30,113 nucleotides of DNA from a virus (taxonomy: Duplodnaviria; Caudoviricetes), in the IMG/VR virus record IMGVR_UViG_3300032103_000283, positions 1-30,113 of that record; one strand, 5' to 3'. This document shows positions 7,904 through 29,229 of the stretch, piece by piece. Position 1 is the first letter of the stretch. The number at the start of each line of letters is the position of its first letter. A program made the position numbers and the translations under genes. The notes below the pieces were generated by a model. That model did not search any database, had not been told where the DNA came from, and saw nothing but the letters and a program-made list of their open reading frames with translations.

Positions 7904-8200
7904 ATGAGAACTTATAACAGGGGCTCTGTATTTTATATATTAGCAGAGGTGTTTAAATATGCTCCTTTTGGAAATTCAAGTTTGTATGACCCAACAGAAG
8001 TCCGTATTACAATTAGCGACCCAACAGGAGCTGATATTATTTCAGAAGAATTATTTGAAAAGACATCTATTGGACGCTATTATTACATATGTCAAACAGA
8101 AGAAAATTGGGAAGCAGGAGTATATAAAACGAAGACTATTACAAAAGATGGAGTTTTAACTGATATTACAATAGATGAATCAGGTTTTCATTTAATCTAA
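7904..8200 (+). CDS. Small Ig-like phage structural-region protein
   Basis: RBS AAGGAG. DPT.V.ITI.DP.G...G.Y.Y pattern. Overlaps the convergent gene by 9 nt. Confidence 0.65.
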   Translation: MRTYNRGSVFYILAEVFKYAPFGNSSLYDPTEVRITISDPTGADIISEELFEKTSIGRYYYICQTEENWEAGVYKTKTITKDGVLTDITIDESGFHLI

Positions 8201-9208
8201 AACTTTTTTGAAATTTGCCTTTGCTACTATTGTTTTATAAGTATTTAACGTATTTAAAATATTATTTCTTATCCAATAGTTCTTTGAGACATAATCGAAG
8301 GCATTTTTTGAAATAGTATTCATCGTTGTAGCATCAAATATTAGTTCTAATAGCGCAGTAACCCAGTTTTCTTTTTGGTTTTTAACCAAAACTCCTGCAA
8401 AAGGAGGAATGCTATTTCTATACACATCAACATCAGAAGCTATTGTTACAGCTTTTATAGCAGAATATTCACAATATTTTAAGGGACTTTTACTTTTATT
8501 AAATAGGTTATTTTCTAATGGAGCAATAGCAATATCAGCATTCAAAGAAGAAATAAAATTAACATAATCAGTAGCTGTTACTGAGCTATAAAAATAGGCT
8601 TTTCCTTTCAACTTAGGGGGAATATACCCAACAAAGATTAAATCAATTATATCTTTATGTTTCTTATATATCTCTAATAATGCACTGACAATACAATCTG
8701 AAAAATCTCCAACATGAGAAGAAGACCCACCCCAAATAATCCGCCTTTTACTTTTCTCTGCTTTCTTATTTAAAACAGGCATCTCAATATAATTAGGAAT
8801 AATATAAACATTTTTATTAAACTGTGAAACTACCTCTCGCAAATTATGAGTAGGAACAGTAACAGCAGTTGATATTCGTAACACTTCAGCAAGTCTATTA
8901 AGCCTCTCTCTATCCCAATATACTTTTGCGGGATTAGCTTCTGAGATTGACCAATAGTCATCGTCTATATCAGTAATAACAATAGTTCCTTTGCTTAATC
9001 TCTGTTTAAAATATTCTATAGCTTTATTTGTATGATGGTGTTGATTTACAATAACATCGCTTTCTTGTAAATCTTTATCTTCAAAATATGTATTATGCTT
9101 AATAATGCAAGGAATATATACATGTAAGTATTTACTTGGTAGAAACATTCTATAGTAACCTTTACCATAAACATCAATAGGTAAAAAATATATCTGCATA
9201 AAAGCCAC
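8192..9208 (-). CDS. Glycosyltransferase, GT-B fold (GT4-like)
   Basis: DIDDDYW, WGGSSSH.GD, DIAIAPLENNLFNKSKSPLKYCEY, ASDV..Y. Likely start is ATG 9199 after AAGGAAGGTG. Confidence 0.85.
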   Translation of the reverse strand: MAFMQIYFLPIDVYGKGYYRMFLPSKYLHVYIPCIIKHNTYFEDKDLQESDVIVNQHHHTNKAIEYFKQRLSKGTIVITDIDDDYWSISEANPAKVYWDRERLNRLAEVLRISTAVTVPTHNLREVVSQFNKNVYIIPNYIEMPVLNKKAEKSKRRIIWGGSSSHVGDFSDCIVSALLEIYKKHKDIIDLIFVGYIPPKLKGKAYFYSSVTATDYVNFISSLNADIAIAPLENNLFNKSKSPLKYCEYSAIKAVTIASDVDVYRNSIPPFAGVLVKNQKENWVTALLELIFDATTMNTISKNAFDYVSKNYWIRNNILNTLNTYKTIVAKANFKKVLD

Positions 9209-9215
9209 CTTCCTT

Positions 9216-9250
9216 AAAATAAATGGCAGCTACGATACTGTAGCTGCCAT
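9216..9250 (-). terminator. Intrinsic terminator
   Basis: Perfect 11-bp stem ATGGCAGCTAC/GTAGCTGCCAT (9223-9250) with a 6-nt loop, followed by TTATTTT on the - strand. Confidence 0.75.
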
Positions 9251-9257
9251 AAAAATG

Positions 9258-9329
9258 CTACTTTTTCTTCTTTTTTACTTTTGTATCAGGTTTTGCTTCA
9301 ACCTTCTTCTTTTTTTTCTTTACAGGCAT
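9258..9329 (-). CDS. 23-aa lysine-rich peptide MPVKKKKKKVEAKPDTKVKKKKK
   Basis: Consensus RBS AAGGAGGT 7 nt before the ATG, clean ORF ending in TAG, 13/23 Lys. Missed by the ORF track. Confidence 0.7.
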   Translation of the reverse strand: MPVKKKKKKVEAKPDTKVKKKKK

Positions 9330-9355
9330 ATGTATTACCTCCTTGGTTTTTTATT

Positions 9356-9781
9356 TTAACTTCCTGTGCTTCCAAATCCACCTCTATTAGTATTATGCAC
9401 TTTTTTATTTACAATATCCATCCTAACAACAGGACATAATACAATTTGCGCTATTCTTTCGCCCTTTGTGAATGTAATTGTCTCACCAATTCGACTTACA
9501 TTAGTAACAATCAACTTTATCTCCTGTCTGTAATCACTATCTATTGTAGCGGGAGAATTTTTCAACCACAAATCAGTCTTAATTGCTAAACCTGAACGAG
9601 GTCTTATTTGAAGTTCATATCCTTCAGGAATTTCAGCTTTTAATCCTGTAGGAATGAGTTCAGTTTTAAAAGGGTAAATTGTTATATCGTCTATTACAAA
9701 AATATCTGCACCTGAACTCCCTTCTGTAGCGTAAACTGGCAACTTTGCGTTTTTATGGATTAACTCGAAGATTACTTTCAT
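9356..9781 (-). CDS. dut: Trimeric dUTPase
   Basis: Motifs SSGAD, RPRSGLA, TIDSDYR, GERIAQ, RGGFGSTG. ATG 9781 follows GAGGG (the ORF track starts at 9826). Confidence 0.96.
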   Translation of the reverse strand: MKVIFELIHKNAKLPVYATEGSSGADIFVIDDITIYPFKTELIPTGLKAEIPEGYELQIRPRSGLAIKTDLWLKNSPATIDSDYRQEIKLIVTNVSRIGETITFTKGERIAQIVLCPVVRMDIVNKKVHNTNRGGFGSTGS

Positions 9782-9875
9782 TTTTCCCTCTAACACATTG
9801 CTATTTTCTTCCTGTATTTTATACACATTACCTTGATTGTTAGCTCTTCCATCTGAATAGTAATTGTTCAGTCGA

Positions 9876-10610
9876 TTACATCTCTAATAATGAAGTTATA
9901 TCATATAAGTGTAAAGGCAACTTCATTGATTTATACTCTTTTTGCTTATTATCTACCCAATAATTTGGATAAATTGGGATACCAAATTTTCCACTTAGTT
10001 CAATTAAGTTAAGCTCTTGCCATCTTTTCCCTTTCTCATAAAGGGATTTCAAAGTTTTTAATAACTGGGCATGTTTTAAGAAAACATTGTAATCTATAAC
10101 ATCGCTATCTCTGCACTCATGTAAATTTCTACCGTCAGTTGATTCAAGATATTCATGAGCTTCCCTAACATACCTACATCTTGATTTTCTCCAGATTCTA
10201 ATATGCGGGTCTAAATTTGAATTAACTATATACGTTCTTCTATTGTTAATTAACGTAATAGTAGGCAATCTTACTGCCGTTATATTTTTATCCATTATAA
10301 CATGTGCTAAGACTTCATCAATAGATTGGCTGTAAGTCTCATCAGCATCAATACCAAGAATTACACTGTTAGAAGCCAGCGATATGCAATAATTCCTCTG
10401 ATTGCAGAAGTTATCAAACTTCCGTGTCCTAAAAATAACTCGCTTATTACTAATCAGAATAAATGCTTCAATTATTTGAAGCGTATTATCAGTGCTATAG
10501 CTATCAACTATACAAATTTCGTCTATATTTTTGAGTGAGTTCAGGAATACAAGACAATACGGAAGCGTTTCTTCTTCATTATATGTTATAAGACATGCTG
10601 TTGCTCTCAT
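9876..10610 (-). CDS. Glycosyltransferase family 2 (WaaE/KdtX-like)
   Basis: LITYNEE, VDSYSTD.T, F..QRN, IDADE, HE motifs. Start placed at ATG 10610 just after a promoter (track start 10649). Confidence 0.88.
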   Translation of the reverse strand: MRATACLITYNEEETLPYCLVFLNSLKNIDEICIVDSYSTDNTLQIIEAFILISNKRVIFRTRKFDNFCNQRNYCISLASNSVILGIDADETYSQSIDEVLAHVIMDKNITAVRLPTITLINNRRTYIVNSNLDPHIRIWRKSRCRYVREAHEYLESTDGRNLHECRDSDVIDYNVFLKHAQLLKTLKSLYEKGKRWQELNLIELSGKFGIPIYPNYWVDNKQKEYKSMKLPLHLYDITSLLEM

Positions 10611-10615
10611 TTTAT

Positions 10616-10645
10616 ATTGTAACATGTTCACATTGAGCTTGTCAA
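10616..10645 (-). promoter_or_regulatory. sigma70-type promoter, probably leaderless
   Basis: TTGACA-N18-TACAAT with TGn extension, 5 nt before the ATG, no RBS. Confidence 0.7.
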
Positions 10646-10655
10646 GCATTCTTGC

Positions 10656-11051
10656 TTACTCAGATGTAAGAGAAACATTGACAATCTTTTTTTCTTTAAC
10701 AGCCTTTTTATCATAAATCTCGTTAATCTTATTTTTTATCTCAACCCGCCTATCGTTTATTTTTCTTATAGCTACTGCCCGTTTACCTATATCAGCATCA
10801 GCCATTGCAATACCTTTTCTAATATCAGCTTCTAAATTCCAAATACGTTGGTTTACTTGAGCAAGTTCACAAATAAGAGCTAATACAAAAGGCAAAGGGA
10901 AAGCGATTTTTAATCCATTCAAAATATTTTCATACTCCTGTTCGTAAAATTCGGGGTCATAGTTCATTTTCATAAGCAGAATTGTTAATCTATCAAGTAA
11001 CTCGCCTGTAGCCATTGGCATAACTTCACATTTATCGCATTTAGTTTCCAT
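10656..11051 (-). CDS. DUF6165-like helical protein
   Basis: GELLDRLTIL..K, L..VN..IW.LE.DIR, NDRR..IK.KIN, EKK pattern. Confidence 0.7.
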   Translation of the reverse strand: METKCDKCEVMPMATGELLDRLTILLMKMNYDPEFYEQEYENILNGLKIAFPLPFVLALICELAQVNQRIWNLEADIRKGIAMADADIGKRAVAIRKINDRRVEIKNKINEIYDKKAVKEKKIVNVSLTSE

Positions 11052-11052
11052 T

Positions 11053-11760
11053 CTACCCCTCCATTATTAGCTCATGAACCATTTCGGCGTATTTTTTGCC
11101 AATAAAATTCCACTCCTGCTTTCTAATATCAAGATTATCCCTTAAAATATCATAAAACTCATTTCTACTCTCAACAGATAGCTTATCCCCTGTTCCAAGA
11201 TGTTTGTGAAATATTTCTACATCTGTTTTAACTTCAAACCCAGAATATCTTGCATACGCTTCCCAACATCTATCTACAGAAGGGTTACTTCCTAATGAAA
11301 AAATCCCACCTAAAATATTATAAAGTTTTCTCGATATAGCAGGGCAAGAAAAACGAAAGCCGTTATGTTTACCTTCTTCTGGCGTTGTTATTTTTGCTGA
11401 AGCTACAGAATACGGATTATTTTTTAGAGCTTCTCTATACTTTAAATCCCAATCCTTTGACATCATTTCCATATCATCATTATATTGAATAATCACATCT
11501 CCGATTGCTGCCCTTGCACACATATCAATCATTTTCCAGTTATCAGCATAACCATTACCCCTTGAACCAATAAGATAAAAATACTTAAAAAATGATTGTT
11601 CCATAATAAAATTTAGATAATCATATACTGTTAAATCATCGCTATCAAGCCTTACTACAACTTCAACTTTAGAAGGTTCGGCGGCTTTTTCAAATAATAA
11701 ATTACAGCAATGCTTGAAATCTTCAAATCTACTTCTTGATGGCATAATAATACTTATCAA
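11053..11760 (-). CDS. Glycosyltransferase, GT-A fold (GT2-like)
   Basis: ISIIMPSRSR, LDSDD, YNDD metal motif, WD, late H. TTG start with RBS GAGGGGG. Confidence 0.8.
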   Translation of the reverse strand: MISIIMPSRSRFEDFKHCCNLLFEKAAEPSKVEVVVRLDSDDLTVYDYLNFIMEQSFFKYFYLIGSRGNGYADNWKMIDMCARAAIGDVIIQYNDDMEMMSKDWDLKYREALKNNPYSVASAKITTPEEGKHNGFRFSCPAISRKLYNILGGIFSLGSNPSVDRCWEAYARYSGFEVKTDVEIFHKHLGTGDKLSVESRNEFYDILRDNLDIRKQEWNFIGKKYAEMVHELIMEG

Positions 11761-11794
11761 GTATTCCCCCTCAAAATATTCTTCTTATTTTTTC

Positions 11795-11854
11795 TTAGAC
11801 AAGAATTTTACCTTTTACTTTACAAACAGCCTCTACTAAAAAATGTTTATTCAT
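11795..11854 (-). CDS. Possible 19-aa micro-ORF (MNKHFLVEAVCKVKGKILV)
   Basis: Strong RBS GGGGAGGT 6 nt upstream, immediately after the previous stop. Confidence 0.3.
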   Translation of the reverse strand: MNKHFLVEAVCKVKGKILV

Positions 11855-11856
11855 CT

Positions 11857-12846
11857 TTATACCTCCCCTTCAAAATACGATTCATATAGTTCAATCGCCT
11901 CTATTGATTTTATTGGTAAAAACTTTTTCTTTGTTGCTTCAATGCCTTCATCCTGTAAACTCCGTAAAAAATTATAAGTATTTTTATAAGCAAATATTTC
12001 ATTCTCTAAATCAGATATTGACGATTCATATGTCCTGTCTTGGTAATGTATAACAGACGGAGTTCCATAAATAACACTATTTGGATGTTTTGCTTGGAAT
12101 AAATAAGATGCCCATATATCATCAGCCCTACCTATAAAAGGAATATTTGCTGGAAAGTCTTTAACTATGCTTCTGTGTATAAAAGTATTCTGGGTATTTA
12201 CAGGTGTAAATTTAAACTTTCCTGTAAATAATTTAGTTTTCTGCTCAAAATAGTCAATGAACGGAGACTTCGATATTCTATCAACAGCATCAATATCAGG
12301 GTCTCCAAACCATAAGTCCTCCCTGATAAGTGGGACTATTTTGCAAATAGAGGATGTAAAGCGATAGCCATAAGAAAAACTCGAACTACTTTTAAGTTGA
12401 TATGGAAATCCCCTATGAGTAAGTAGTTCAGTAGGAAAAGTAGGGACTTGCAAATAATAAATTTCTAATGGGTTAAAACATAAATTATTTAAATTTGTTT
12501 CATACATATTAATTTCCATTTCTTTGTTCAAAATTATATCTTTTCCCCAATGCTCTAAAGGAAAATTATCATCATCAATAGAGGCAATTATTTCTCCACC
12601 ATGCTTATACCCTTCAATAAAAGCTATCATTCTACCTCGTGCAACACTACAAGCACCAATTAAATCACAGAAAGGACGATAAATATCCATTTGTTCTTCC
12701 CAAGAAATATATCGACCCTGTTCCAATTTGTAATTGGGAGTTTTTGTATCTCCGACAACAATTAAATCCCAATCGCTTAAAGCATCATATGACTTAATAG
12801 CTATAGTAGGTTTATTTATAGTCGTTGTAACAATTACGTTTTTCAC
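11857..12846 (-). CDS. RGP/STELLO (GT75/DUF288)-like glycosyltransferase or NDP-sugar mutase
   Basis: IVTTTIN.PT, LIVVGD.KTP, IDDDN.P, GDPDIDA..R, NTQNT, GRADDIW..Y motifs. Confidence 0.78.
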   Translation of the reverse strand: MKNVIVTTTINKPTIAIKSYDALSDWDLIVVGDTKTPNYKLEQGRYISWEEQMDIYRPFCDLIGACSVARGRMIAFIEGYKHGGEIIASIDDDNFPLEHWGKDIILNKEMEINMYETNLNNLCFNPLEIYYLQVPTFPTELLTHRGFPYQLKSSSSFSYGYRFTSSICKIVPLIREDLWFGDPDIDAVDRISKSPFIDYFEQKTKLFTGKFKFTPVNTQNTFIHRSIVKDFPANIPFIGRADDIWASYLFQAKHPNSVIYGTPSVIHYQDRTYESSISDLENEIFAYKNTYNFLRSLQDEGIEATKKKFLPIKSIEAIELYESYFEGEV

Positions 12847-13850
12847 ACTAAGTATAATCCCCCATTATTATATAAACGTTCAAAATTTTCATGATGGTAG
12901 AAAAACTTACAATCTACCGTTGCACAATCTCGTCTCCTAATTTTTTTAATACAATTATAATGATGCTCAGAGAACCATAATTTATCGAAATCAGCTTCAA
13001 AGATATTACCAAGTTTCATTCCGTCCCTATTATAATAATAGCAACAAACATACATATTACCAAAATAATCAAATACAGTATGAATAGGTGTAAGCCAACA
13101 CTGCGGAATTTCACCAAAAGGTTTTATCCATTTCTTTACTTTAAGTTTACCAAATGGAAGTTTTGATAAAATAGAATCTTCATATATTTTTTCTTTAAGT
13201 GATAGCTCTTCAGGCTCATGTCTTAATGCTTTAAATGTTACTTGTTTTACTTTTAATTCATCAGCTAATACTAAAGCACTTAAATAATGAGTTACACCTC
13301 GCAGTGATTTTCCGACAGAAAATTTCAGAGTAAAATCTTCCATTCGTTTTGCAAGTTCTTCTGCCGCTAACAAAGCATCTACCCAATCAGCTATTCCTAC
13401 TTTTTTATAATTACAATATGTTGCAGCATTAGACGCTTCAAGAGAAATACGAACATATGTAGCATTTTTAGATAAGAAATCAACAAATTCTTGACCGTTA
13501 TTTATTATATTAGTCCCATTTGTAATAAGCCCAAAATAACAACCATTCATTCGTATTAACTTGAGCAGCTCATGCAGATAAGGAAGCATAGTTGGCTCTC
13601 CACCTCCAGCAAAATCAAAAAACTTAACTCCTTTTGAAATTAAAAGTTCTACAAGGGCAAAATGATTTTCTTTGCTCATTATCTTTCCATTATGAAGAGA
13701 GCTATATGCACATCCATTACATTTTTGATTACATGTATAACTTGTATGAAAATCTACAAAATGAGGCAAAGGAAAAGAACGCCAGTTTTTTTCCTCTAAA
13801 TCTTGTTTATATTTAATAATTTCATTCGCTCTGAAAATAATATTACTCAT
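12843..13850 (-). CDS. Radical SAM enzyme with SPASM/twitch domain
   Basis: CNQKCNGC (CxxxCxxC), GGGEPT, ITNG, RISL. C-terminal C...G..YVCC...GNI...W...C...C. Confidence 0.92.
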   Translation of the reverse strand: MSNIIFRANEIIKYKQDLEEKNWRSFPLPHFVDFHTSYTCNQKCNGCAYSSLHNGKIMSKENHFALVELLISKGVKFFDFAGGGEPTMLPYLHELLKLIRMNGCYFGLITNGTNIINNGQEFVDFLSKNATYVRISLEASNAATYCNYKKVGIADWVDALLAAEELAKRMEDFTLKFSVGKSLRGVTHYLSALVLADELKVKQVTFKALRHEPEELSLKEKIYEDSILSKLPFGKLKVKKWIKPFGEIPQCWLTPIHTVFDYFGNMYVCCYYYNRDGMKLGNIFEADFDKLWFSEHHYNCIKKIRRRDCATVDCKFFYHHENFERLYNNGGLYLV

Positions 13851-14626
13851 GTTCTTACCTTTTCGATATAAGTAAACATGTCGTTAACTAATTGGAGGTT
13901 TATAGGTTTAAAGTTTTCAAAATCTTTAGGTGTTATGTCTTCTACTCTACTATTATCATGGTCAAAATGATAGTGCTCATAAATTTGAGTTACTTCTGTT
14001 TTTTGTGTTAACCTTTCAAGTAAGTCGTTATCCAAATGCCAATTACCATGCACCATTTTATATCCACCAACCTTATCATACAAAGTTTTCGTCATTACAC
14101 AAAAATCACCAGCAGCCGTATGTGAGGTAGCAAGTGTCATAAAAGTATTTTGTTCTGCTTCGTAGCATAAATCATTATTTCTTCGTGTGCAATACTCTCT
14201 GAATATATCGTATCTTATTGCCCTTGATACCTTTCCTTTCAGCGAACTATCAATAACAGACAGAAAGTTACGGTTTGGAAAGATATTATCAGGGTTTGCA
14301 ACAATAATATGCTCATTCTTAGCAGAGTATATTCCAACATGTTTTGCTATGTATTCATAAAATGGAAGTTTAATATTAGAATCTTCTTTTAATAACTGAT
14401 GATATTTTTTAGTAATTGTAATTATTCTAACTTTTGGGAATTTACGCACATGTTCAATTATTCTTAACTTATCAGGAGCAAACTCAACAACAATAAGTTC
14501 AGTTATAGCTTTTATTTGCTCTACAGAAAAACAAGTAACTTCAAGCCGTCTCATAGTAAAATTATCTACATCTGCACATTTACCACCATAACTATCGTTT
14601 CTTGTTGCTATTACCATTGAGAACAT
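13847..14626 (-). CDS. Glycosyltransferase, GT-A fold
   Basis: VIATRNDSYGG, LIVVEF, EYIAKHVGI..A, NPDNIF, AAGDF, GGY, YHFDH. RBS AGGAG. Confidence 0.75.
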   Translation of the reverse strand: MFSMVIATRNDSYGGKCADVDNFTMRRLEVTCFSVEQIKAITELIVVEFAPDKLRIIEHVRKFPKVRIITITKKYHQLLKEDSNIKLPFYEYIAKHVGIYSAKNEHIIVANPDNIFPNRNFLSVIDSSLKGKVSRAIRYDIFREYCTRRNNDLCYEAEQNTFMTLATSHTAAGDFCVMTKTLYDKVGGYKMVHGNWHLDNDLLERLTQKTEVTQIYEHYHFDHDNSRVEDITPKDFENFKPINLQLVNDMFTYIEKVRT

Positions 14627-14724
14627 TTGTCTTTTGTCTCCTATTACTTGTAAGCGTTATTTGCTCGATTTTACATATCTGTGTTTTTTTTTCTCTGTTT
14701 GTCTGCCACACTGAACACAAACTT

Positions 14725-16269
14725 TCAACCTATGATTTCTTTTACGCTTTTGTAAACTTCATCAACAGTTATCGTATTAACACACTCAAAATTATTTGTG
14801 CAATGCACACTATAAGTTTGAACAAGATGAATACATCCTTGACATTTAATATCTGCAACTACTGGTTTTAGAATTTTAGAAGATAAATTAGCTACAAGTT
14901 CAGGTTTACATACCGTATATAACACAACTGCTGGTGTATCAACAGCTTGTGCTGCATGGGCTAAAAATCCATCATGTCCAACATAAATATCAGCAAAAAG
15001 AAGACTTGCTGCTGCTTCAGTTATACTTAATACGTTTAGCAATGACCAATCATATTCAACATAAATAGGTTTTTTAGTTTTTCCTACTAAAACTACCTTA
15101 ATTCCATCTGCTCGTAATTTTTTACTGAGTTTCTCATAATTACTATGATGCCATTGCTTTGCAGTCCATGTATCAGATAAGTCTAAAAAAGCTACTTTAT
15201 TTTCAAAAAAACTTTTATCTGGTAAATAATTTTGTAATATATTTTCAATCGCTGACTTAGGTGTATATAAAATACCTCTCTTTGATTTTACTTCAACATC
15301 AGCAACCTTAGCATAAGCATCAATTATATGTATTGAAAAATCTTTTTCATAGGCATAATCTAAATCTATTAATCTATCGAAGTAGCAAGGAAAACCGATA
15401 GGTAATTCAATATCTATAAGAGGATAACCAACAACTCCTTTTGCTTCAGTTAAAAGAATAATACTTGTATCTGGATATTTATTTCTTAATTGTTCAAGGA
15501 TAGGTGTAACAAGTAAAACATCCCCTAAACTTCCTGTTCTCTTAACTGCTATAGTTTCCCCAAACTTTTTCCCAACAATATAGCTATACCATTTTTTGAG
15601 AAATTTATGTTTATTAATTTCTCTTATAGCCCCAATTCCAATTACTTTTACTGAAGATTGTGCTCTATGGTGTTTCCATTTTAAAGAAACAGAAGAAAGC
15701 GAAAATCCCTGTTTTTTTAACCTAAATGATAAATCTGTATCTTCAAAATAACCTAACTTATAAGTTTCTGAATCGAAAAGCTCTTTTAAAAACAATTCAG
15801 TTCTCATAACAAAACAAGAACCTTCGCAATATTCAGGTTCGTCAATATCGACTCCAGCACCATCTCCGTATATATCAACAACATTACATTGACCGTTTTT
15901 TATACTTACTTGAGCAACGTTTGTGTTATTTATTAAAGGATTACACAATTTATGAACCCATTCTTCATAAAACTCGATATCGTCATTTAATACAGCAAAA
16001 TAAGGTTGAGTTGCATGTAAAACATTTAAGTTATGTGCTTCTCCGAACCCTACATTTTCATTTAAACAACTTTTATTAATAAGAATATGAATATGAGGAA
16101 TATATACTTTTGCAAGTCTTAATACTTCTTGTGTAATACTTTCATTTAAAGGAGAATTATTAAAAATAATAACCTGTTTTAATCCAGCATTATATTTTCT
16201 AAATGACTTAAATAAATTTGCAATCATTTGCAAATTTGGTTCATAAATAGCGATGCTTGCTGTAAGCAC
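14725..16269 (-). CDS. Bifunctional glycosyltransferase: N-terminal GT2 + C-terminal GT9 (heptosyltransferase-like)
   Basis: GT2: NVGFGEAHN, LNDD, GSCF, YFEDTDLS.R. GT9: RTGSLGDVLL.TP...LR.KYP, KQW, YVGHDG..AH.A.A...P.VVLY, C.GC...C...ITVDEV. RBS AAGGAGG. Confidence 0.9.
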   Translation of the reverse strand: MLTASIAIYEPNLQMIANLFKSFRKYNAGLKQVIIFNNSPLNESITQEVLRLAKVYIPHIHILINKSCLNENVGFGEAHNLNVLHATQPYFAVLNDDIEFYEEWVHKLCNPLINNTNVAQVSIKNGQCNVVDIYGDGAGVDIDEPEYCEGSCFVMRTELFLKELFDSETYKLGYFEDTDLSFRLKKQGFSLSSVSLKWKHHRAQSSVKVIGIGAIREINKHKFLKKWYSYIVGKKFGETIAVKRTGSLGDVLLVTPILEQLRNKYPDTSIILLTEAKGVVGYPLIDIELPIGFPCYFDRLIDLDYAYEKDFSIHIIDAYAKVADVEVKSKRGILYTPKSAIENILQNYLPDKSFFENKVAFLDLSDTWTAKQWHHSNYEKLSKKLRADGIKVVLVGKTKKPIYVEYDWSLLNVLSITEAAASLLFADIYVGHDGFLAHAAQAVDTPAVVLYTVCKPELVANLSSKILKPVVADIKCQGCIHLVQTYSVHCTNNFECVNTITVDEVYKSVKEIIG

Positions 16270-17145: not shown

Positions 17146-19608
17146 TTAATCTTTAACTTCTTTAAGCTCGTTCCAATTAGTTCCTTGTTTTCTATCACTT
17201 TCAATCTTATATCCAACAAGTATATTAAAATATGTCTTAATATACTCTTTACTTCTATCACATAAACACTCTTTTAAAAGTAAAGCAGCGTCATCAAATA
17301 CATCTTCTTTAGCCCTAAACATACAAGCATCATGTGTAAAAAGCATTGATTTTACTTTATTTTTAAGTTTTCTATTTGTCTTAATTTCTTGATTAAATAA
17401 GAAAAAGCCGATAATGCCTAAATCAGAAGAAAAAGAAGAAACAGGAAAATTTATACACTGCCTAATAGCTTTGCTTCGATATTTATACTCGTTTGAATCA
17501 ATATCAGGTAGCCTTCTCTTTCTTCCTAATGGACTTCTTACATATTTATGTTTAATTAAAAAGTGTTCTTGATACGCATAAAAAGCAGGGAGTTTATAGT
17601 ATCCGTTAGGGTTTGCAAAAAAAGCTGTTCTTGTTGCTTCTGCTTCTTTTAGTGTCATATCAACATCATAATCTGATTTTACATATTGTTTTAACCCTTT
17701 TGCAGATAAACCATACATAAGACCAAAATTAATACCCTTTGCTTTTTGCCTCATGTCTTTTGTAACCTTATCAAGAGGAATATTATGATTAATAATAGAT
17801 GCTGTTTGTCTATGTAAATCTATCCCATTATTTACAGCATTTAATATATTCCTATCCCCTGCTAACCAACCCATTATACGCAATTCAGATTGTGATAAAT
17901 CACGAACCCCTAAAACCCAACCATCTTCAACAATAAAACACTTACGTATTAAATAAGCGTAAGGGTGTCTTACAGGAAGCTGATGTAAAGGAGGGTTATA
18001 AGTTGCTGTTCTTCCTGAGACAGTCTTATATAATAATGTTGAAGTATGGGCTAATCCATCTTCATGAATTTCTTTGTGTAATGTATTTAAGTATCCTGTT
18101 TTTATTTTTAGAAGTTTTTTCCAATCTAAAAATTTAGTTATAAATTTATGAGACTTAAGAGCCCTTAAATGTTCTTCATTTATTTGCGGTTCTTTTGTTT
18201 TAGCTGTGATATAAAATGGGTCTGGTTTTCTTTTTAACCCTTTTTCAGCATAAAACAAAATATCCTTAACAAATGCAGGGCGAGTAAGACTTAAATTGTC
18301 AGTATATTTTTCTTTAATAGACTCATGGACATAAGAAAGACATTCATCATGGAGTGATGTAAGCAATGTATCAGCTTCATTATTAGCTTCAGTAAGCATA
18401 TTTTTATCAATTAAGCATCCATTCATATAAGTATCAAAAAATAGCTCTTGTGCAGGTAAAATAAAATTTGTATAGTAATTAGTAATTTTTGTATCTTTTA
18501 TAAGTTCTTTTGAGAGAGTTCTAAAACATCGCATAGTAGCATCAGCATCAACACCAGAATATCTAATTAGAGTTTCTTCGTTTGCATCTTGTAAGTTTGT
18601 TCTATAACCTTCAGCAAGTTCTTTTATATTTTTTAAAGGTGTATATGTATTTGCAATTTCTTCAAGGCTATATGAATAATAATTTTCATCTATAAGATGC
18701 GCCATTAAAGCAACATCGTGTAATTTCCCTTTTAACTCAAATTTCAAACTTGCTTTAGTTACAGCTTCTTCAAACGGGCGAGACATTACAACTTTAGCTA
18801 TTTTAGGATTTTTAAGAAGTTCAATAACACTACTATCAAACGGAGGCAAGAAAATTTGCGCTTCTCCTTCTTTATGAGACACAGAGAGCGATAAGATTTT
18901 AAAGGTTGATTTGTTAAAAGGACTTAAACCAGTCGTTTCATAATCTATCGCAACAACTTTACAGTCAGGTGGGACTATAACTTTACTTGCTTTTTTATAG
19001 TCTTCTGAGTTTATCACAAGCTCACTAAAATCATTTTCAAAGAGCTGACTTATGATTTTAAAATCATTAAACAAGAGTTTTTCAGTCATAGACATTAAAT
19101 TATAAGGTTGATATGGATATTCTGCTGAGACACCTTGACGTAGAATATAAGACGGATGAACCGTAATTACAACTGGACAATTAAATTCGTCTGAAAAGAT
19201 AACTTTTCCTCTGTGTTGCATTATCTTCTGTTTTCCAAGAAGTTGTTTTAGTGCATATGCTCCTAAAGAAACAATTACTTTTGGTTTTATTGAATGAATT
19301 GCCTTTTCTAAAAAACTCCTGCAATGTTTCATTGCAGTATTTATATTTTTAGTCGAATCTATGTTTTTTTCAATCATACAACGACAGCTATTTGCAAGAA
19401 AAACTGTGCTGCGGGGTATCTTAATAGTTTCGAGAAGTTTATTAAGTAATTTTCCACTTCTTCCAACAAAAGGCATTCGTGGAGATGCTCCTATTTCATC
19501 AACCCCTGGACTTTCCCCTACTATAAGACATTCAGCTTCTAATGAACCAGCATATGGAACTTCTTCTTTTTCAAAATATGGACATGCTTTACAATATTCT
19601 TTTTTCAT
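17146..19608 (-). CDS. polA: Family A DNA polymerase with N-terminal family-4 uracil-DNA glycosylase domain and 3'-5' exonuclease
   Basis: UDG: CxxC, GESPG..E, PFVG.SG, N..RC, HPSY. Exonuclease: DYETTGL, Y...DA. Polymerase: DLSQSELR, D.H, RQKAK.INFGLMYG, HD. Start ATG 19608 (track 19623). Confidence 0.95.
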   Translation of the reverse strand: MKKEYCKACPYFEKEEVPYAGSLEAECLIVGESPGVDEIGASPRMPFVGRSGKLLNKLLETIKIPRSTVFLANSCRCMIEKNIDSTKNINTAMKHCRSFLEKAIHSIKPKVIVSLGAYALKQLLGKQKIMQHRGKVIFSDEFNCPVVITVHPSYILRQGVSAEYPYQPYNLMSMTEKLLFNDFKIISQLFENDFSELVINSEDYKKASKVIVPPDCKVVAIDYETTGLSPFNKSTFKILSLSVSHKEGEAQIFLPPFDSSVIELLKNPKIAKVVMSRPFEEAVTKASLKFELKGKLHDVALMAHLIDENYYSYSLEEIANTYTPLKNIKELAEGYRTNLQDANEETLIRYSGVDADATMRCFRTLSKELIKDTKITNYYTNFILPAQELFFDTYMNGCLIDKNMLTEANNEADTLLTSLHDECLSYVHESIKEKYTDNLSLTRPAFVKDILFYAEKGLKRKPDPFYITAKTKEPQINEEHLRALKSHKFITKFLDWKKLLKIKTGYLNTLHKEIHEDGLAHTSTLLYKTVSGRTATYNPPLHQLPVRHPYAYLIRKCFIVEDGWVLGVRDLSQSELRIMGWLAGDRNILNAVNNGIDLHRQTASIINHNIPLDKVTKDMRQKAKGINFGLMYGLSAKGLKQYVKSDYDVDMTLKEAEATRTAFFANPNGYYKLPAFYAYQEHFLIKHKYVRSPLGRKRRLPDIDSNEYKYRSKAIRQCINFPVSSFSSDLGIIGFFLFNQEIKTNRKLKNKVKSMLFTHDACMFRAKEDVFDDAALLLKECLCDRSKEYIKTYFNILVGYKIESDRKQGTNWNELKEVKD

Positions 19609-19613
19609 ATATA

Positions 19614-19643
19614 ATTCTAACATATTTAAATATAGTTTGTCAA
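19614..19643 (-). promoter_or_regulatory. sigma70-type promoter for polA, probably leaderless
   Basis: TTGACA-N18-TAGAAT with TGn extension, 5 nt before ATG 19608, no RBS. Confidence 0.7.
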
Positions 19644-21380: not shown

Positions 21381-22440
21381 CGTCAAATATTCTCCCAACT
21401 TTATTATCATCAAGAATTGCCTGTCTTACAGCATTACATAAAATATTATCATTTTCAATCGCCGTTGTTGCAGCTACTAAGTTAACATAAACTGAGCCAA
21501 GACACTCCCATTTAGTTCCTTTCTTTGTAAGAATATTATGTTTCCGTGCTTTTTCAATAACATCTTTTACATCAATAATATCTCCAATTTTATGGGATTT
21601 CGTCTCTTTTATATAAGTTTTATATTCTCCTGTCAATTTTGGAAGTCCAACTCTATTTTTTTCCAATACAAATGCGTGTGTGCATTTTGTAGTCATATCT
21701 CCTGATTTCTCATAGCCTTTATTATAGAACTTAATATCCATAGATACTACATGACTAACCATATAACCACATGGGGGTGTTGTTGTTGGTTGAAATGAAC
21801 GGGTTCCAATACTTGCTCTTGCTTGATTAATTAAAATCGTTGTTAACGGATTTTGCTCTGCTTTCTTTTGAGCTATTATTGGAATTATCTTTCTAAGCAG
21901 CTTGTTAACAAGTTTTGTTTGTTGTCCTACAAAATCATCTGTAGCAGAAGCTGTAGCTTCTGCTACAGGAATTATCATTGCAATGCTATCTATAACAAGT
22001 AAACCGATGTCTTCTGCTTTAATAAGTTCAACAATCATATCTACACCCTGCTCACCATAGTCAGGGTCAATTAAATAAAATTCATCAACATCTACAAGAA
22101 AATTCTTTGCCCAGTCATAATCAAAAGCATGTTCAAAATCTATCCATAAAACTTTTTTCCGCTTTGCTTTATTTTCTTCAATTTCTTTTTGCTTTTGTTG
22201 ATATCTTCCAGCAATCCTTAGAGCATGAGTTGTTTTACCACTTGAGCGGACTCCTTGAAATTGTGTAATCCGCCCCATTGGAATTCCACCTAATGTATAA
22301 TAATCAAATAGAAATATACCTGACTCAATACGTGGGACTACAAGTTTTGTCAGGTGATTTCCAGTAAAAATTAGATTTGGTTTTTTTCCATCTAACTTTA
22401 ACGCTAACTCTTCAATAAGTATTGTTTGTTTAGCCGCCAC
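21340..22440 (-). CDS. recA: RecA/UvsX-like recombinase
   Basis: GGIP.GRI, G..SSGKTT, D.EHA.D, VIDSIA, INQ.R, KNRVG.P. Confidence 0.93.
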   Translation of the reverse strand: MAAKQTILIEELALKLDGKKPNLIFTGNHLTKLVVPRIESGIFLFDYYTLGGIPMGRITQFQGVRSSGKTTHALRIAGRYQQKQKEIEENKAKRKKVLWIDFEHAFDYDWAKNFLVDVDEFYLIDPDYGEQGVDMIVELIKAEDIGLLVIDSIAMIIPVAEATASATDDFVGQQTKLVNKLLRKIIPIIAQKKAEQNPLTTILINQARASIGTRSFQPTTTPPCGYMVSHVVSMDIKFYNKGYEKSGDMTTKCTHAFVLEKNRVGLPKLTGEYKTYIKETKSHKIGDIIDVKDVIEKARKHNILTKKGTKWECLGSVYVNLVAATTAIENDNILCNAVRQAILDDNKVGRIFDDAEIETETEFESL

Positions 22441-22642
22441 TCGATACTCTCCGTAATCTTAAAACTTCAGCTTCCATTTCTTTTGTAACTTCAGCTTTTA
22501 ATGCTTTTATAGCTTTTGCTTTATTTTTTTTATCAGTTTGAATTGTCATCCCAAAATTAACACGTAAACTTTCATAATTACCAGCATTAAGTGTAGTTCC
22601 AAGTTCATATGTTACAGAAATAACATCATTTGTTATTTTCAT
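22430..22642 (-). CDS. Conserved small phage protein (T.N.GNYES.RV motif)
   Basis: RBS GGAGGT before ATG 22642. The track start at 22681 lies inside the RNA element. Confidence 0.7.
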   Translation of the reverse strand: MKITNDVISVTYELGTTLNAGNYESLRVNFGMTIQTDKKNKAKAIKALKAEVTKEMEAEVLRLRRVSSGG

Positions 22643-22659
22643 TTTATACCTCCAATGTA

Positions 22660-22863
22660 GATATTCCATCTTGAACCGCAAGGTAAGGTTAGAGAGGAAT
22701 ACATCTCCTTTCTATCAACATAGCTATAGAGCTTGCGGAATACCCTATAGTGTCTTGACCCACACAACTTCTGTTCAGCATTACCCGTTTACTCCCTTGT
22801 CAACCAAACTTGTCTTCACAAACCCTTACTATAATCCAGAGGATTTAGTGGGAGGTGATTGAC
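22660..22863 (-). ncRNA. Orphan IscB-type omegaRNA / HEARO-like RNA (non-autonomous IS200/IS605 derivative)
   Basis: 5' GTCAATCA pairs with TGGTTGAC and encloses two hairpins. Then CAGAAGTT and the hairpin CTATAGGGT-ATTCCGCAA-GCTCTATAG, whose CCGCAAG complements downstream CTTGCGG (pseudoknot). No iscB ORF follows. Confidence 0.72.
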
Positions 22864-23350
22864 TTTTTGTCTCTTTTGGAGGCAGTTTGTTAGGGTCATA
22901 TTTTGTATCCCAAACAGAAGAAAGAATTTTATACAAATCATCATATGTATATTTTGTATAATCGCCTGCATCAATTCTTGTTACTACTTCTTTTAAATAC
23001 TGTGCATTAGAATATGTGTAGTATTTTTTTACACTATTTCCAACAGTAAGATGTTTAGGTAAATAACCCCTAACTCTCCATCTGTAAACTACCGTATAGT
23101 TTCTCCCTATAAATTTTGCTACTTGCTTTAAAAGTAAAAGTAATTCTTGTCTTCCATCTATTTCTACAACAATAGGTTTTTTCACATTTGCCATCCTCTT
23201 CAATACATAAGCTATTCGTGAACTTATTTTTATTGTGCGTCTATAAGCTGCATCTGTCTCATACCTTGCTCGTTTTTTCCTTTGCAAACGGGACTTATTC
23301 ATTGTATAGTATTGATGCTGATATTGTTTTGCTGTAAGTTTAGCTGCCAT
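22829..23350 (-). CDS. MerR-like HTH DNA-binding protein with basic N-terminus
   Basis: LKQVAKFIGRNYTVVYRWRVRGYLP MerR-type HTH. RBS GGGGAGGTG. The last 11 codons are supplied by the RNA element. Confidence 0.7.
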   Translation of the reverse strand: MAAKLTAKQYQHQYYTMNKSRLQRKKRARYETDAAYRRTIKISSRIAYVLKRMANVKKPIVVEIDGRQELLLLLKQVAKFIGRNYTVVYRWRVRGYLPKHLTVGNSVKKYYTYSNAQYLKEVVTRIDAGDYTKYTYDDLYKILSSVWDTKYDPNKLPPKETKSQSPPTKSSGL

Positions 23351-28704: not shown

Positions 28705-29229
28705 TTAATTTGAGTTGCATTTCATGTGTTTTTGTCTGAAGTTTTTAGCAGCAATCGCAGCTACTATCTCTGAATCAAAATAACCTACATGATAGTTTTT
28801 TTTGTGTATCTTTACTTGCGCTCTCCATTTACGCTTATCTTTACAATAAGATACCCCCCTAAAAGTAGATGAAGTTGGCTTTCCATGCAGAACAGGCATA
28901 CCTTTAGGGTTTTTATTTTGAGCATTATACTGTAAAGAAACAATGCGCATGTTCTTCCTTCTGCAATCAAGTTTATCTCTGTTTATATGGTCAACTGTTA
29001 AATGCTTAGGAGGACGCAGAAGAAAACGGTGCAACTGTATCCATATTCTGCTTCCATCTTGAATATTACGGTAAGTAGTAAATAAATAACCTCTCCCAAC
29101 ATACCACTTGTGCATTTTTACAAGCTCGAAGTCAGATAAATCTACTATAGCGTCAGCAATAAGTTCCTGTTGTTTAGTATATACATAGATATGTCCAACT
29201 CCATCTTTAATTTCAAACTTATTTCCCAT
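28705..29229 (-). CDS. HNH homing endonuclease with C-terminal AP2 domain
   Basis: LHRFLL, VDHINRDKLD.RR.N.R, SS.FRGVS....KWRAQ......HVGYFDSE..AA.A. Confidence 0.92.
   Translation of the reverse strand: MGNKFEIKDGVGHIYVYTKQQELIADAIVDLSDFELVKMHKWYVGRGYLFTTYRNIQDGSRIWIQLHRFLLRPPKHLTVDHINRDKLDCRRKNMRIVSLQYNAQNKNPKGMPVLHGKPTSSTFRGVSYCKDKRKWRAQVKIHKKNYHVGYFDSEIVAAIAAKNFRQKHMKCNSN

Follow-up and report, generated by a model that had tools for sequence, protein, structure and literature searches.

According to the excerpts of the sources used here, ISC (IscB) elements are non-autonomous transposons of the IS200/IS605 type with a 5' GTCA terminus, ATG(A/G)A after the far end and no target duplication seen, and N|ATGA targets have been documented from empty sites (PMC4810608). 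The transposase TnpA and its end hairpins underlie the 'peel-and-paste' movement described for such elements (10.1101/2023.03.14.532601, PMC4810608, PMC9581776, PMC9755519, PMC13180657). The Geobacillus element ISGst5 has the same 5' GTCA and far-end motif and lies in the direction of the upstream gene (orientation bias), and the same source describes PATE-like relatives of ISGst1 and ISGst5 that carry no ORF (10.1101/2023.03.14.532601). The omegaRNA of the OMEGA system of IscB, an ancestor of Cas9, is known in Rfam as HEARO RNA (RF02033); it starts with GTCAA, has a P1 stem closing on TTGAC, adaptor hairpins and a central hairpin with its loop, and takes its guide from the 5' flank. The pseudoknot pairs and the 3' hairpin are reported to be needed in IsrB/IscB (PMC9581776, PMC13180657). 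Breakage of pseudoknot pairs abolished nicking by IsrB (PMC9581776), and in an IscB omegaRNA a 3' truncation of up to ~21 nt was harmless and a 35-nt cut gave an off state needing complementation (PMC13180657). IscB can also use omegaRNAs that stand alone (PMC9581776, on the basis of earlier work), and >16% of HEARO-nuclease fragments have been classed as viral or prophage (PMC9755519).

We analysed a virus record of 30,113 bases, called the window below, in which an element of this kind is embedded in a phage replication operon. The element has the HEARO features listed above, with a guide that would come from its 5' flank, and, like ISC elements and ISGst5, it has the 5' GTCA, the direction of the upstream gene and no target duplication seen, with ATGGA at 22669 or ATGAA at 22642 as the candidate motif after its far end. 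It differs from HEARO RNA in scoring 23.6 bits against 83 and in lacking the 3' 40% and iscB, and it differs from ISC elements and ISGst5, as described in those excerpts, in measuring 194 or 221 bp instead of ~1.5 kb, its nuclease being deleted and its far-end hairpin damaged. We consider it very probable that an IscB omegaRNA gene, of which the first 60% is left, has been joined directly to another part of its own IS200/IS605-type transposon, likely the final codons of iscB together with the far end, and that the product is likely a dead internal-deletion relic and not a working guide RNA. The features of the locus are as follows.

30,113 bases, linear: virus record (the whole window), 37% complete
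Minus strand: replication operon with primase, DnaB, helicase, helix-turn-helix (HTH) gene (23350-22829), 70-aa gene (22642-22430) and RecA/UvsX
22829..23350, minus strand: phage HTH gene, 173 aa, last 11 codons and stop supplied by the element
22864..22883, minus strand: 5' flank and would-be guide, coding sequence of the upstream gene
22726..22863, minus strand: 5' 60% of an IscB omegaRNA (HEARO) gene, also the right (guide-side) element end; begins GTCAA and holds, in order, P1 stem, right-end hairpin, GAAG hairpin, CAGAAGTT and central hairpin with loop CCGCAAG
22863-22856 and 22806-22799, minus strand: P1 stem strands GTCAATCA and TGGTTGAC
22849-22841 and 22837-22828, minus strand: hairpin arms ACTAAATCC and GGATTATAGT
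22822-22809, minus strand: GAAG hairpin TTTGT-GAAG-ACAAG
22773-22766, minus strand: motif CAGAAGTT
22750-22743 and 22731-22724, minus strand: central hairpin arms CTATAGGG and CTCTATAG
22738-22732 and 22682-22676, minus strand: 7-nt complement pair CCGCAAG and CTTGCGG
22716..22725, minus strand: proposed deletion joint, placed by eye from the alignments
22670..22718, minus strand: putative last iscB codons and damaged far (left) end, from alignment to far ends
22713-22705 and 22699-22691, minus strand: third hairpin of an earlier note, AGAAAGGAG and TTCCTCTCT
22643..22669, minus strand: 27 bases with a GGAGG ribosome-binding site, either phage DNA opening with the target motif ATGGA (boundary B) or a long-hairpin far-end tail reaching the ATGAA start codon (boundary C)
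22430..22642, minus strand: 70-aa phage gene with ATGAA start, weak match to PHROG 5189 (function unknown), RecA/UvsX-like gene next downstream

On sequence grounds, the homology of 22863-22726 to omegaRNA is certain. Relatives were gathered in two ways, by DNA patterns and by IscB protein search, and a profile was built from five omegaRNAs (L047, L048, L049, L079 and L022) that had been located through their IscB proteins, independently of the window letters. With nhmmer, this profile gave a single match in the window, 22863-22726, at E 6.2e-21 over model positions 1-140 of ~234. An earlier note on this DNA, made from the letters alone, had proposed an IscB-type omegaRNA, and this value, far above chance, upholds the identification; every motif it named also sits at its minus-strand place. 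A second profile, from 12 pattern-found loci, gave a window match that stops at 137 of 234. The best single relative among the 21 compared was the iscB-bearing element L047, with 101 identities and 25 mismatches. Both the P1 stem (GTCAA.../...TTGAC) and the central hairpin keep all eight of their pairs, and both helices covary across the family. The right end has GTCAA and a subterminal hairpin, as expected of IS200/IS605 (ISC) elements, and this hairpin carries two pair-breaking changes at its base relative to L047 (GG to AA). The Rfam HEARO covariance model, which the earlier note had suggested running with cmsearch, was the sole family match in the 30 kb at E<=1; the match, spanning 22863-22657, reaches 23.6 bits, below the gathering cut-off of 83 (E 0.41 in 30 kb, E 0.0095 in 701 nt), and intact relatives (L003, L006) score 76 to 114 bits. 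A chance origin of the omegaRNA likeness was considered and is ruled out (E 6e-21), and an origin from IsrB is made unlikely by the closest pattern- and protein-found loci, which encode HNH-bearing IscB.

The scaffold had been described as near-intact, but its homology ends at model position 140 of ~234. Intact relatives run ~95 nt further, through a helix, the TTAAA domain, the closing strand and the CCCCGATG-GG pseudoknot strands, past which lies a terminal hairpin holding the iscB ribosome-binding site. No omegaRNA 3' half, whether TTAAA domain, closing strand, pseudoknot strands or terminal hairpin, is recognisable in the window element. By comparison with these relatives, the element has lost ~95 nt of 3' scaffold, and with it the terminal hairpin and the strands that natively pair in the closing stem and in both pseudoknots. 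Set against the excerpts of PMC9581776 and PMC13180657, a loss of ~95 bases would leave no working scaffold, and the element is likely unable to guide a nuclease.

What follows the omegaRNA part resembles the opposite end of the transposon. Bases 22718-22704 read Leu-Ile-Glu-Arg-Arg, the IscB C-termini of relatives show LIERR, LIERK or LMERR, and the bases after this stretch resemble the far ends of L030, L042 and L047. A test segment of 56 bases, 22725-22670, was aligned with 18 far ends and with 17 omegaRNA 3' halves. Against the far ends it reached a mean score of 21.0, compared with 10.9 ± 1.5 for shuffled segments, matched by none of 500 shuffles; none of 4273 background segments from the window reached this mean, and only one of 4273 did when the nine protein-found ends were used alone. 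Against the 3' halves the mean was 10.6 versus 10.7, and 1082 of the 4273 window segments reached it. The single exception is the omegaRNA 3' half of L004, which aligns to the segment with a score of 30.2 (z 5.0). One far-end HMM gave E 0.054 for an adjacent segment, two others found no match at 22725-22670, and a covariance model of 20 far ends (R1) ranked the segment 24th of 40 (E 4.6) and so did not pick it out. These models might be weak here since they are weighted to the GGGG hairpin arm, which is damaged or lost in this element. From the alignments, 22725-22670 is likely made up of iscB C-terminal codons and the transposon far end.

The same segment could instead be an eroded native 3' strand of the omegaRNA, comprising its closing and pseudoknot strands, with the middle domain alone deleted and no far end present. 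Such a reading would account for the Rfam HEARO model aligning the window end to end (model positions 1-211), for the L004 alignment, and for a spacing from AAC to TGCGG of 7 nt here and 8 in the family. We find it quite unlikely, since the mean over the 17 3' halves stays at shuffle level (229 of 500 shuffles), and the first 25 bases, with the Leu-Ile-Glu-Arg-Arg codons, are left unexplained. Moreover, the kept 5' strand GTTGTGTGGG belongs with those of L003 and L047, and strands of this type natively pair with one that ends in TTACAAC and not in CTCTTAAC, and the invariant G-A of the CGATG motif is absent.

The third hairpin and CTTGCGG, which the earlier note had counted as omegaRNA parts, both align to the transposon far end instead. 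CTTGCGG occurs in the far-end hairpin of two of the 18 related far ends, and TGCGG in five. Because the 7-mer recurs in related far-end hairpins, the CTTGCGG strand needs no selection, and the one perfect 7-nt inverted pair observed in the region is at chance level (shuffle mean 2.1). Two intact elements (L030:1428-1495 and L042:1497-1564) carry CTTGCGG in the far-end hairpin, where it complements the loop CCGCAAG of the omegaRNA that the same element encodes ~1.3 kb upstream. A far end can thus look like the 3' pseudoknot strand of the omegaRNA, and the practical lesson is that a low-score, end-to-end HEARO alignment can mask a half-deleted RNA. The left-end hairpin, with a folding energy of -3.9 kcal/mol at boundary B or -6.6 kcal/mol in a shifted register at boundary C, compares with -6.3 to -16.6 in the 18 related ends. 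The element is thus likely without the intact left-end hairpin that TnpA needs, which would prevent its movement by TnpA.

The guide-side boundary was examined through proteins of related phages. P0002 (167 aa), the sole relative among 38 candidates, is 76% identical to the HTH protein and matches it through Pro-Pro-Lys-Glu; it then ends KISEEGE, where the window protein enters element-coded residues. The boundary at 22863 follows from this parting of P0002 and the window protein at the junction. The insertion with this boundary, as the earlier note had it, is therefore borne out by the diverging protein tail (protein evidence, not empty-site DNA), and its statement that the element provides the upstream gene's stop and the 11 codons before it can be read off the sequence. 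Its 'MerR-like' label for that gene was not recovered: profile libraries returned no MerR family but PHROG 19880, a transcriptional regulator (E 2.6e-7), phrog_66, an excisionase, and a match to Pfam HTH_17 below the cut-off. The downstream 70-aa protein has a relative in P0004 (72 aa), 78% identical and likewise beginning Met-Lys. P0002 and P0004 come from contigs of 5,935 bases each, probably the same contig. The downstream gene has a further in-frame ATG at 22669 (window 22669-22643), from which its protein could be nine residues longer; P0004 starts at the position of the second ATG, not of this one. In the search for empty-site DNA, the HTH query found no viral locus, and the RecA query found one distant phage (35% identity) with the same gene order and no HTH gene at that place, which is uninformative for the boundary. 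The contigs of three sequencing runs included one identical to the window, possibly its source, and showed no rejoined, element-free joint. In the window, the final 10 or more bases of the flank 22864..22883 do not occur a second time.

At the far side, boundaries B and C are about even. Boundary B, at 22670, is followed by ATGGA and requires that 12 bases were lost from within the hairpin; the rejoined gene would encode 170 aa, with Ile-Ser four residues ahead of the stop, like P0002. Boundary C, at 22643, directly precedes the start codon with its ATGAA, and the rejoined gene would encode 167 aa. The element would span 194 bp with B or 221 bp with C, and its GC content is 43%, against 32% for the window. 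Boundary C fits the long far-end type of L047 and L048, with a 5-bp outer stem ATGTA/TACAT and a 12-nt tail; in a post hoc test, stem and tail appeared in 356 of 20000 shuffled tails, and together with the spacer motif in 2 of 20000. The motif after the related far ends is ATGAA in 14 of 18, ATGAT in three and ATGGA in one, where only the letters after ATG(A/G) are free information since the ends were located by looking for ATG(A/G). Including the 27 extra bases of the tail does not improve the alignment beyond what shuffles give (61 of 300 were as good). The ribosome-binding stretch GGTATAAAATG within the tail recurs before another phage gene, at 2995, and the tail has a phage-like GC of 30%. 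Seven bases of the guide-side flank, 22882-22876, are also perfectly complementary to the ribosome-binding site downstream, at 22655-22649, which is at chance level; it could represent a coupling hairpin of the empty site.

These boundary data bear on whether the relic has been co-opted in cis, its boundary-C tail supplying a ribosome-binding site or its hairpins tuning how well the recombination genes downstream are translated or how stable their mRNA is. The far-end geometry of boundary C and the ATGAA after most related far ends would be compatible with this idea, which is nevertheless highly improbable in our view. The tail is no better than shuffles, its ribosome-binding stretch and base composition are those of the phage, and, judging from P0002, the end codons of the relative's upstream gene could hold a ribosome-binding site of their own. 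In addition, there is no promoter-like site on the minus strand, and the promoter scan as a whole stayed at shuffle level (4 found versus 4.7).

The earlier note went further and proposed that the RNA could act on a nuclease in trans. Its interpretation holds for the IscB omegaRNA insertion, the boundary at 22863, the recoded tail and the lack of iscB after it; it fails for the near-intact scaffold, ~95 nt of the 3' part being lost, and hence for trans-guided homing, which is unlikely. For such a model to apply to the element as read here, far-end bases would have to replace the lost strands so that the RNA can fold, and it would then either direct a host IscB, supplied in trans, to cut related phages' alleles that lack the element (homing) or serve as a decoy soaking up IscB; nothing points to the decoy role. 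Several observations are in keeping with the model. The element has the same direction as the operon, so flank and scaffold would be transcribed, and either rejoined site sets ATG(A/G)A directly after the guide match. Substitute pairs exist for the closing stem (8 of 10) and for the loop (7 bp), and standalone omegaRNAs are reported to work with IscB (PMC9581776, in its excerpt, citing earlier work). The sequencing run with the phage also contains a separate low-depth contig of 346 bases (laid on L047:2819-2882) with a related omegaRNA, including a 3' domain without counterpart in the window, so that IscB relatives may be in the phage's community.

Against these stand the ~95 nt missing from the scaffold and the predicted fold, in which the central hairpin has a pair probability of ~0.7 and the stem that would substitute for the closing one has 0.00; a fold constrained to close in a native-like way reaches -44.0 versus -54.1, a cost of 10 kcal/mol, in a model that leaves pseudoknots and protein outside. 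Folding z-scores of 0.09 and 0.25 are uninformative as a test because the same part of an intact relative scores alike (-0.19). No match to iscB (PLMP/RRXRR, RuvC, HNH) and no tnpA occurs across the 30-kb contig, which is 37% complete. The window has one copy of the element; blastn against phages and plasmids returned short chance matches and no record with 80% covered, and the strict metagenome pattern had no matches. We therefore judge the trans model to be very unlikely. In a bolder version, the deletion would have produced a small chimeric guide RNA, with the far end taking over from the closing and pseudoknot strands (AAC and TGCGG at near-native spacing, 7-bp loop pairing); it would load a host IscB in trans and cut element-free HTH alleles in co-infecting relatives, which would be nuclease-free, RNA-only homing. 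This seems extremely unlikely; if a chimeric RNA did work in trans, it would be a natural example of how small an IscB scaffold can be and of homing between phages by RNA only. Among the literature matches listed, no title concerned orphan omegaRNA homing in phages, which does not imply absence from print.

The internal-deletion relic, the reading that we prefer, has counterparts among the relatives. We examined 32 loci, of which two gave no match, six were duplicates and one lay at a contig edge, leaving 23 distinct classifiable copies; 11 had iscB and 12 did not, nine of the latter coming from one genome (G001), so that these counts are no population estimate. Three iscB-less copies (L007, L020 and L041) break off just past the central hairpin, at model positions 136-155, possibly a preferred break region. 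Five others are elements of 344-358 bp with full omegaRNA and both ends: the PATE-like, ORF-less L010, L013, L014 and L015 (344-358 bp, G001) and L040 (353 bp). They resemble the window element in having both ends and no protein gene, and L013 and L015 have the stretch before CAGAA closely in common with it. They differ in their whole omegaRNA, clean far-end hairpin and several copies, whereas the window element lacks the 3' omegaRNA and was found once. In G001, L010, L013, L014, L015, L017 and L019 form an ORF-less family with full omegaRNA and far end, each then followed by ATGA (four measured, 344-358 bp), and an IscB protein query found no match there at E<=1e-30. A further candidate, L008, was a chance pattern match inside an ABC-transporter gene and not a relative.

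A possible history would begin with an ISC/IscB element of ~1.5 kb, which a host Y1 transposase (TnpA) placed in the operon direction, with ATG(A/G)A next to it and the stop of the phage HTH gene only a few codons away. Either in the phage or before the element reached it, a deletion of ~1.3 kb, perhaps via the short microhomology TGTTG, would have taken almost the whole of iscB along with the 3' omegaRNA. TGTTG at 22720-22716 is a possible microhomology because it fits both sides of the joint, where an omegaRNA helix strand would end and where the C-terminal codons of iscB would begin. The scrap was likely tolerated, as it would swap a short protein tail only and leave the ribosome-binding site ahead of the next gene, and it would be transcribed passively along with the operon. 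Read as a relic, the element has little significance and is one more decayed IscB derivative of a known kind, which would indicate that an aquatic phage has acquired DNA of a Nitrospirota-like IscB subfamily.

Some further observations were made on the window and a related virus contig. L002 carries two IscB/IsrB-like genes ~1 kb apart (1285-2567 and 2-343), the first with a HEARO match of 81.6 bits and, by eye, without HNH. In the window, 17146-19623 encodes a family A DNA polymerase with an N-terminal uracil-DNA glycosylase domain fused on, and 8192-16269 holds an ORF cluster that by eye includes glycosyltransferase-, radical-SAM- and dUTPase-like genes. A free-standing HNH-AP2 endonuclease gene lies at 28705-29229 in the same operon as the element.
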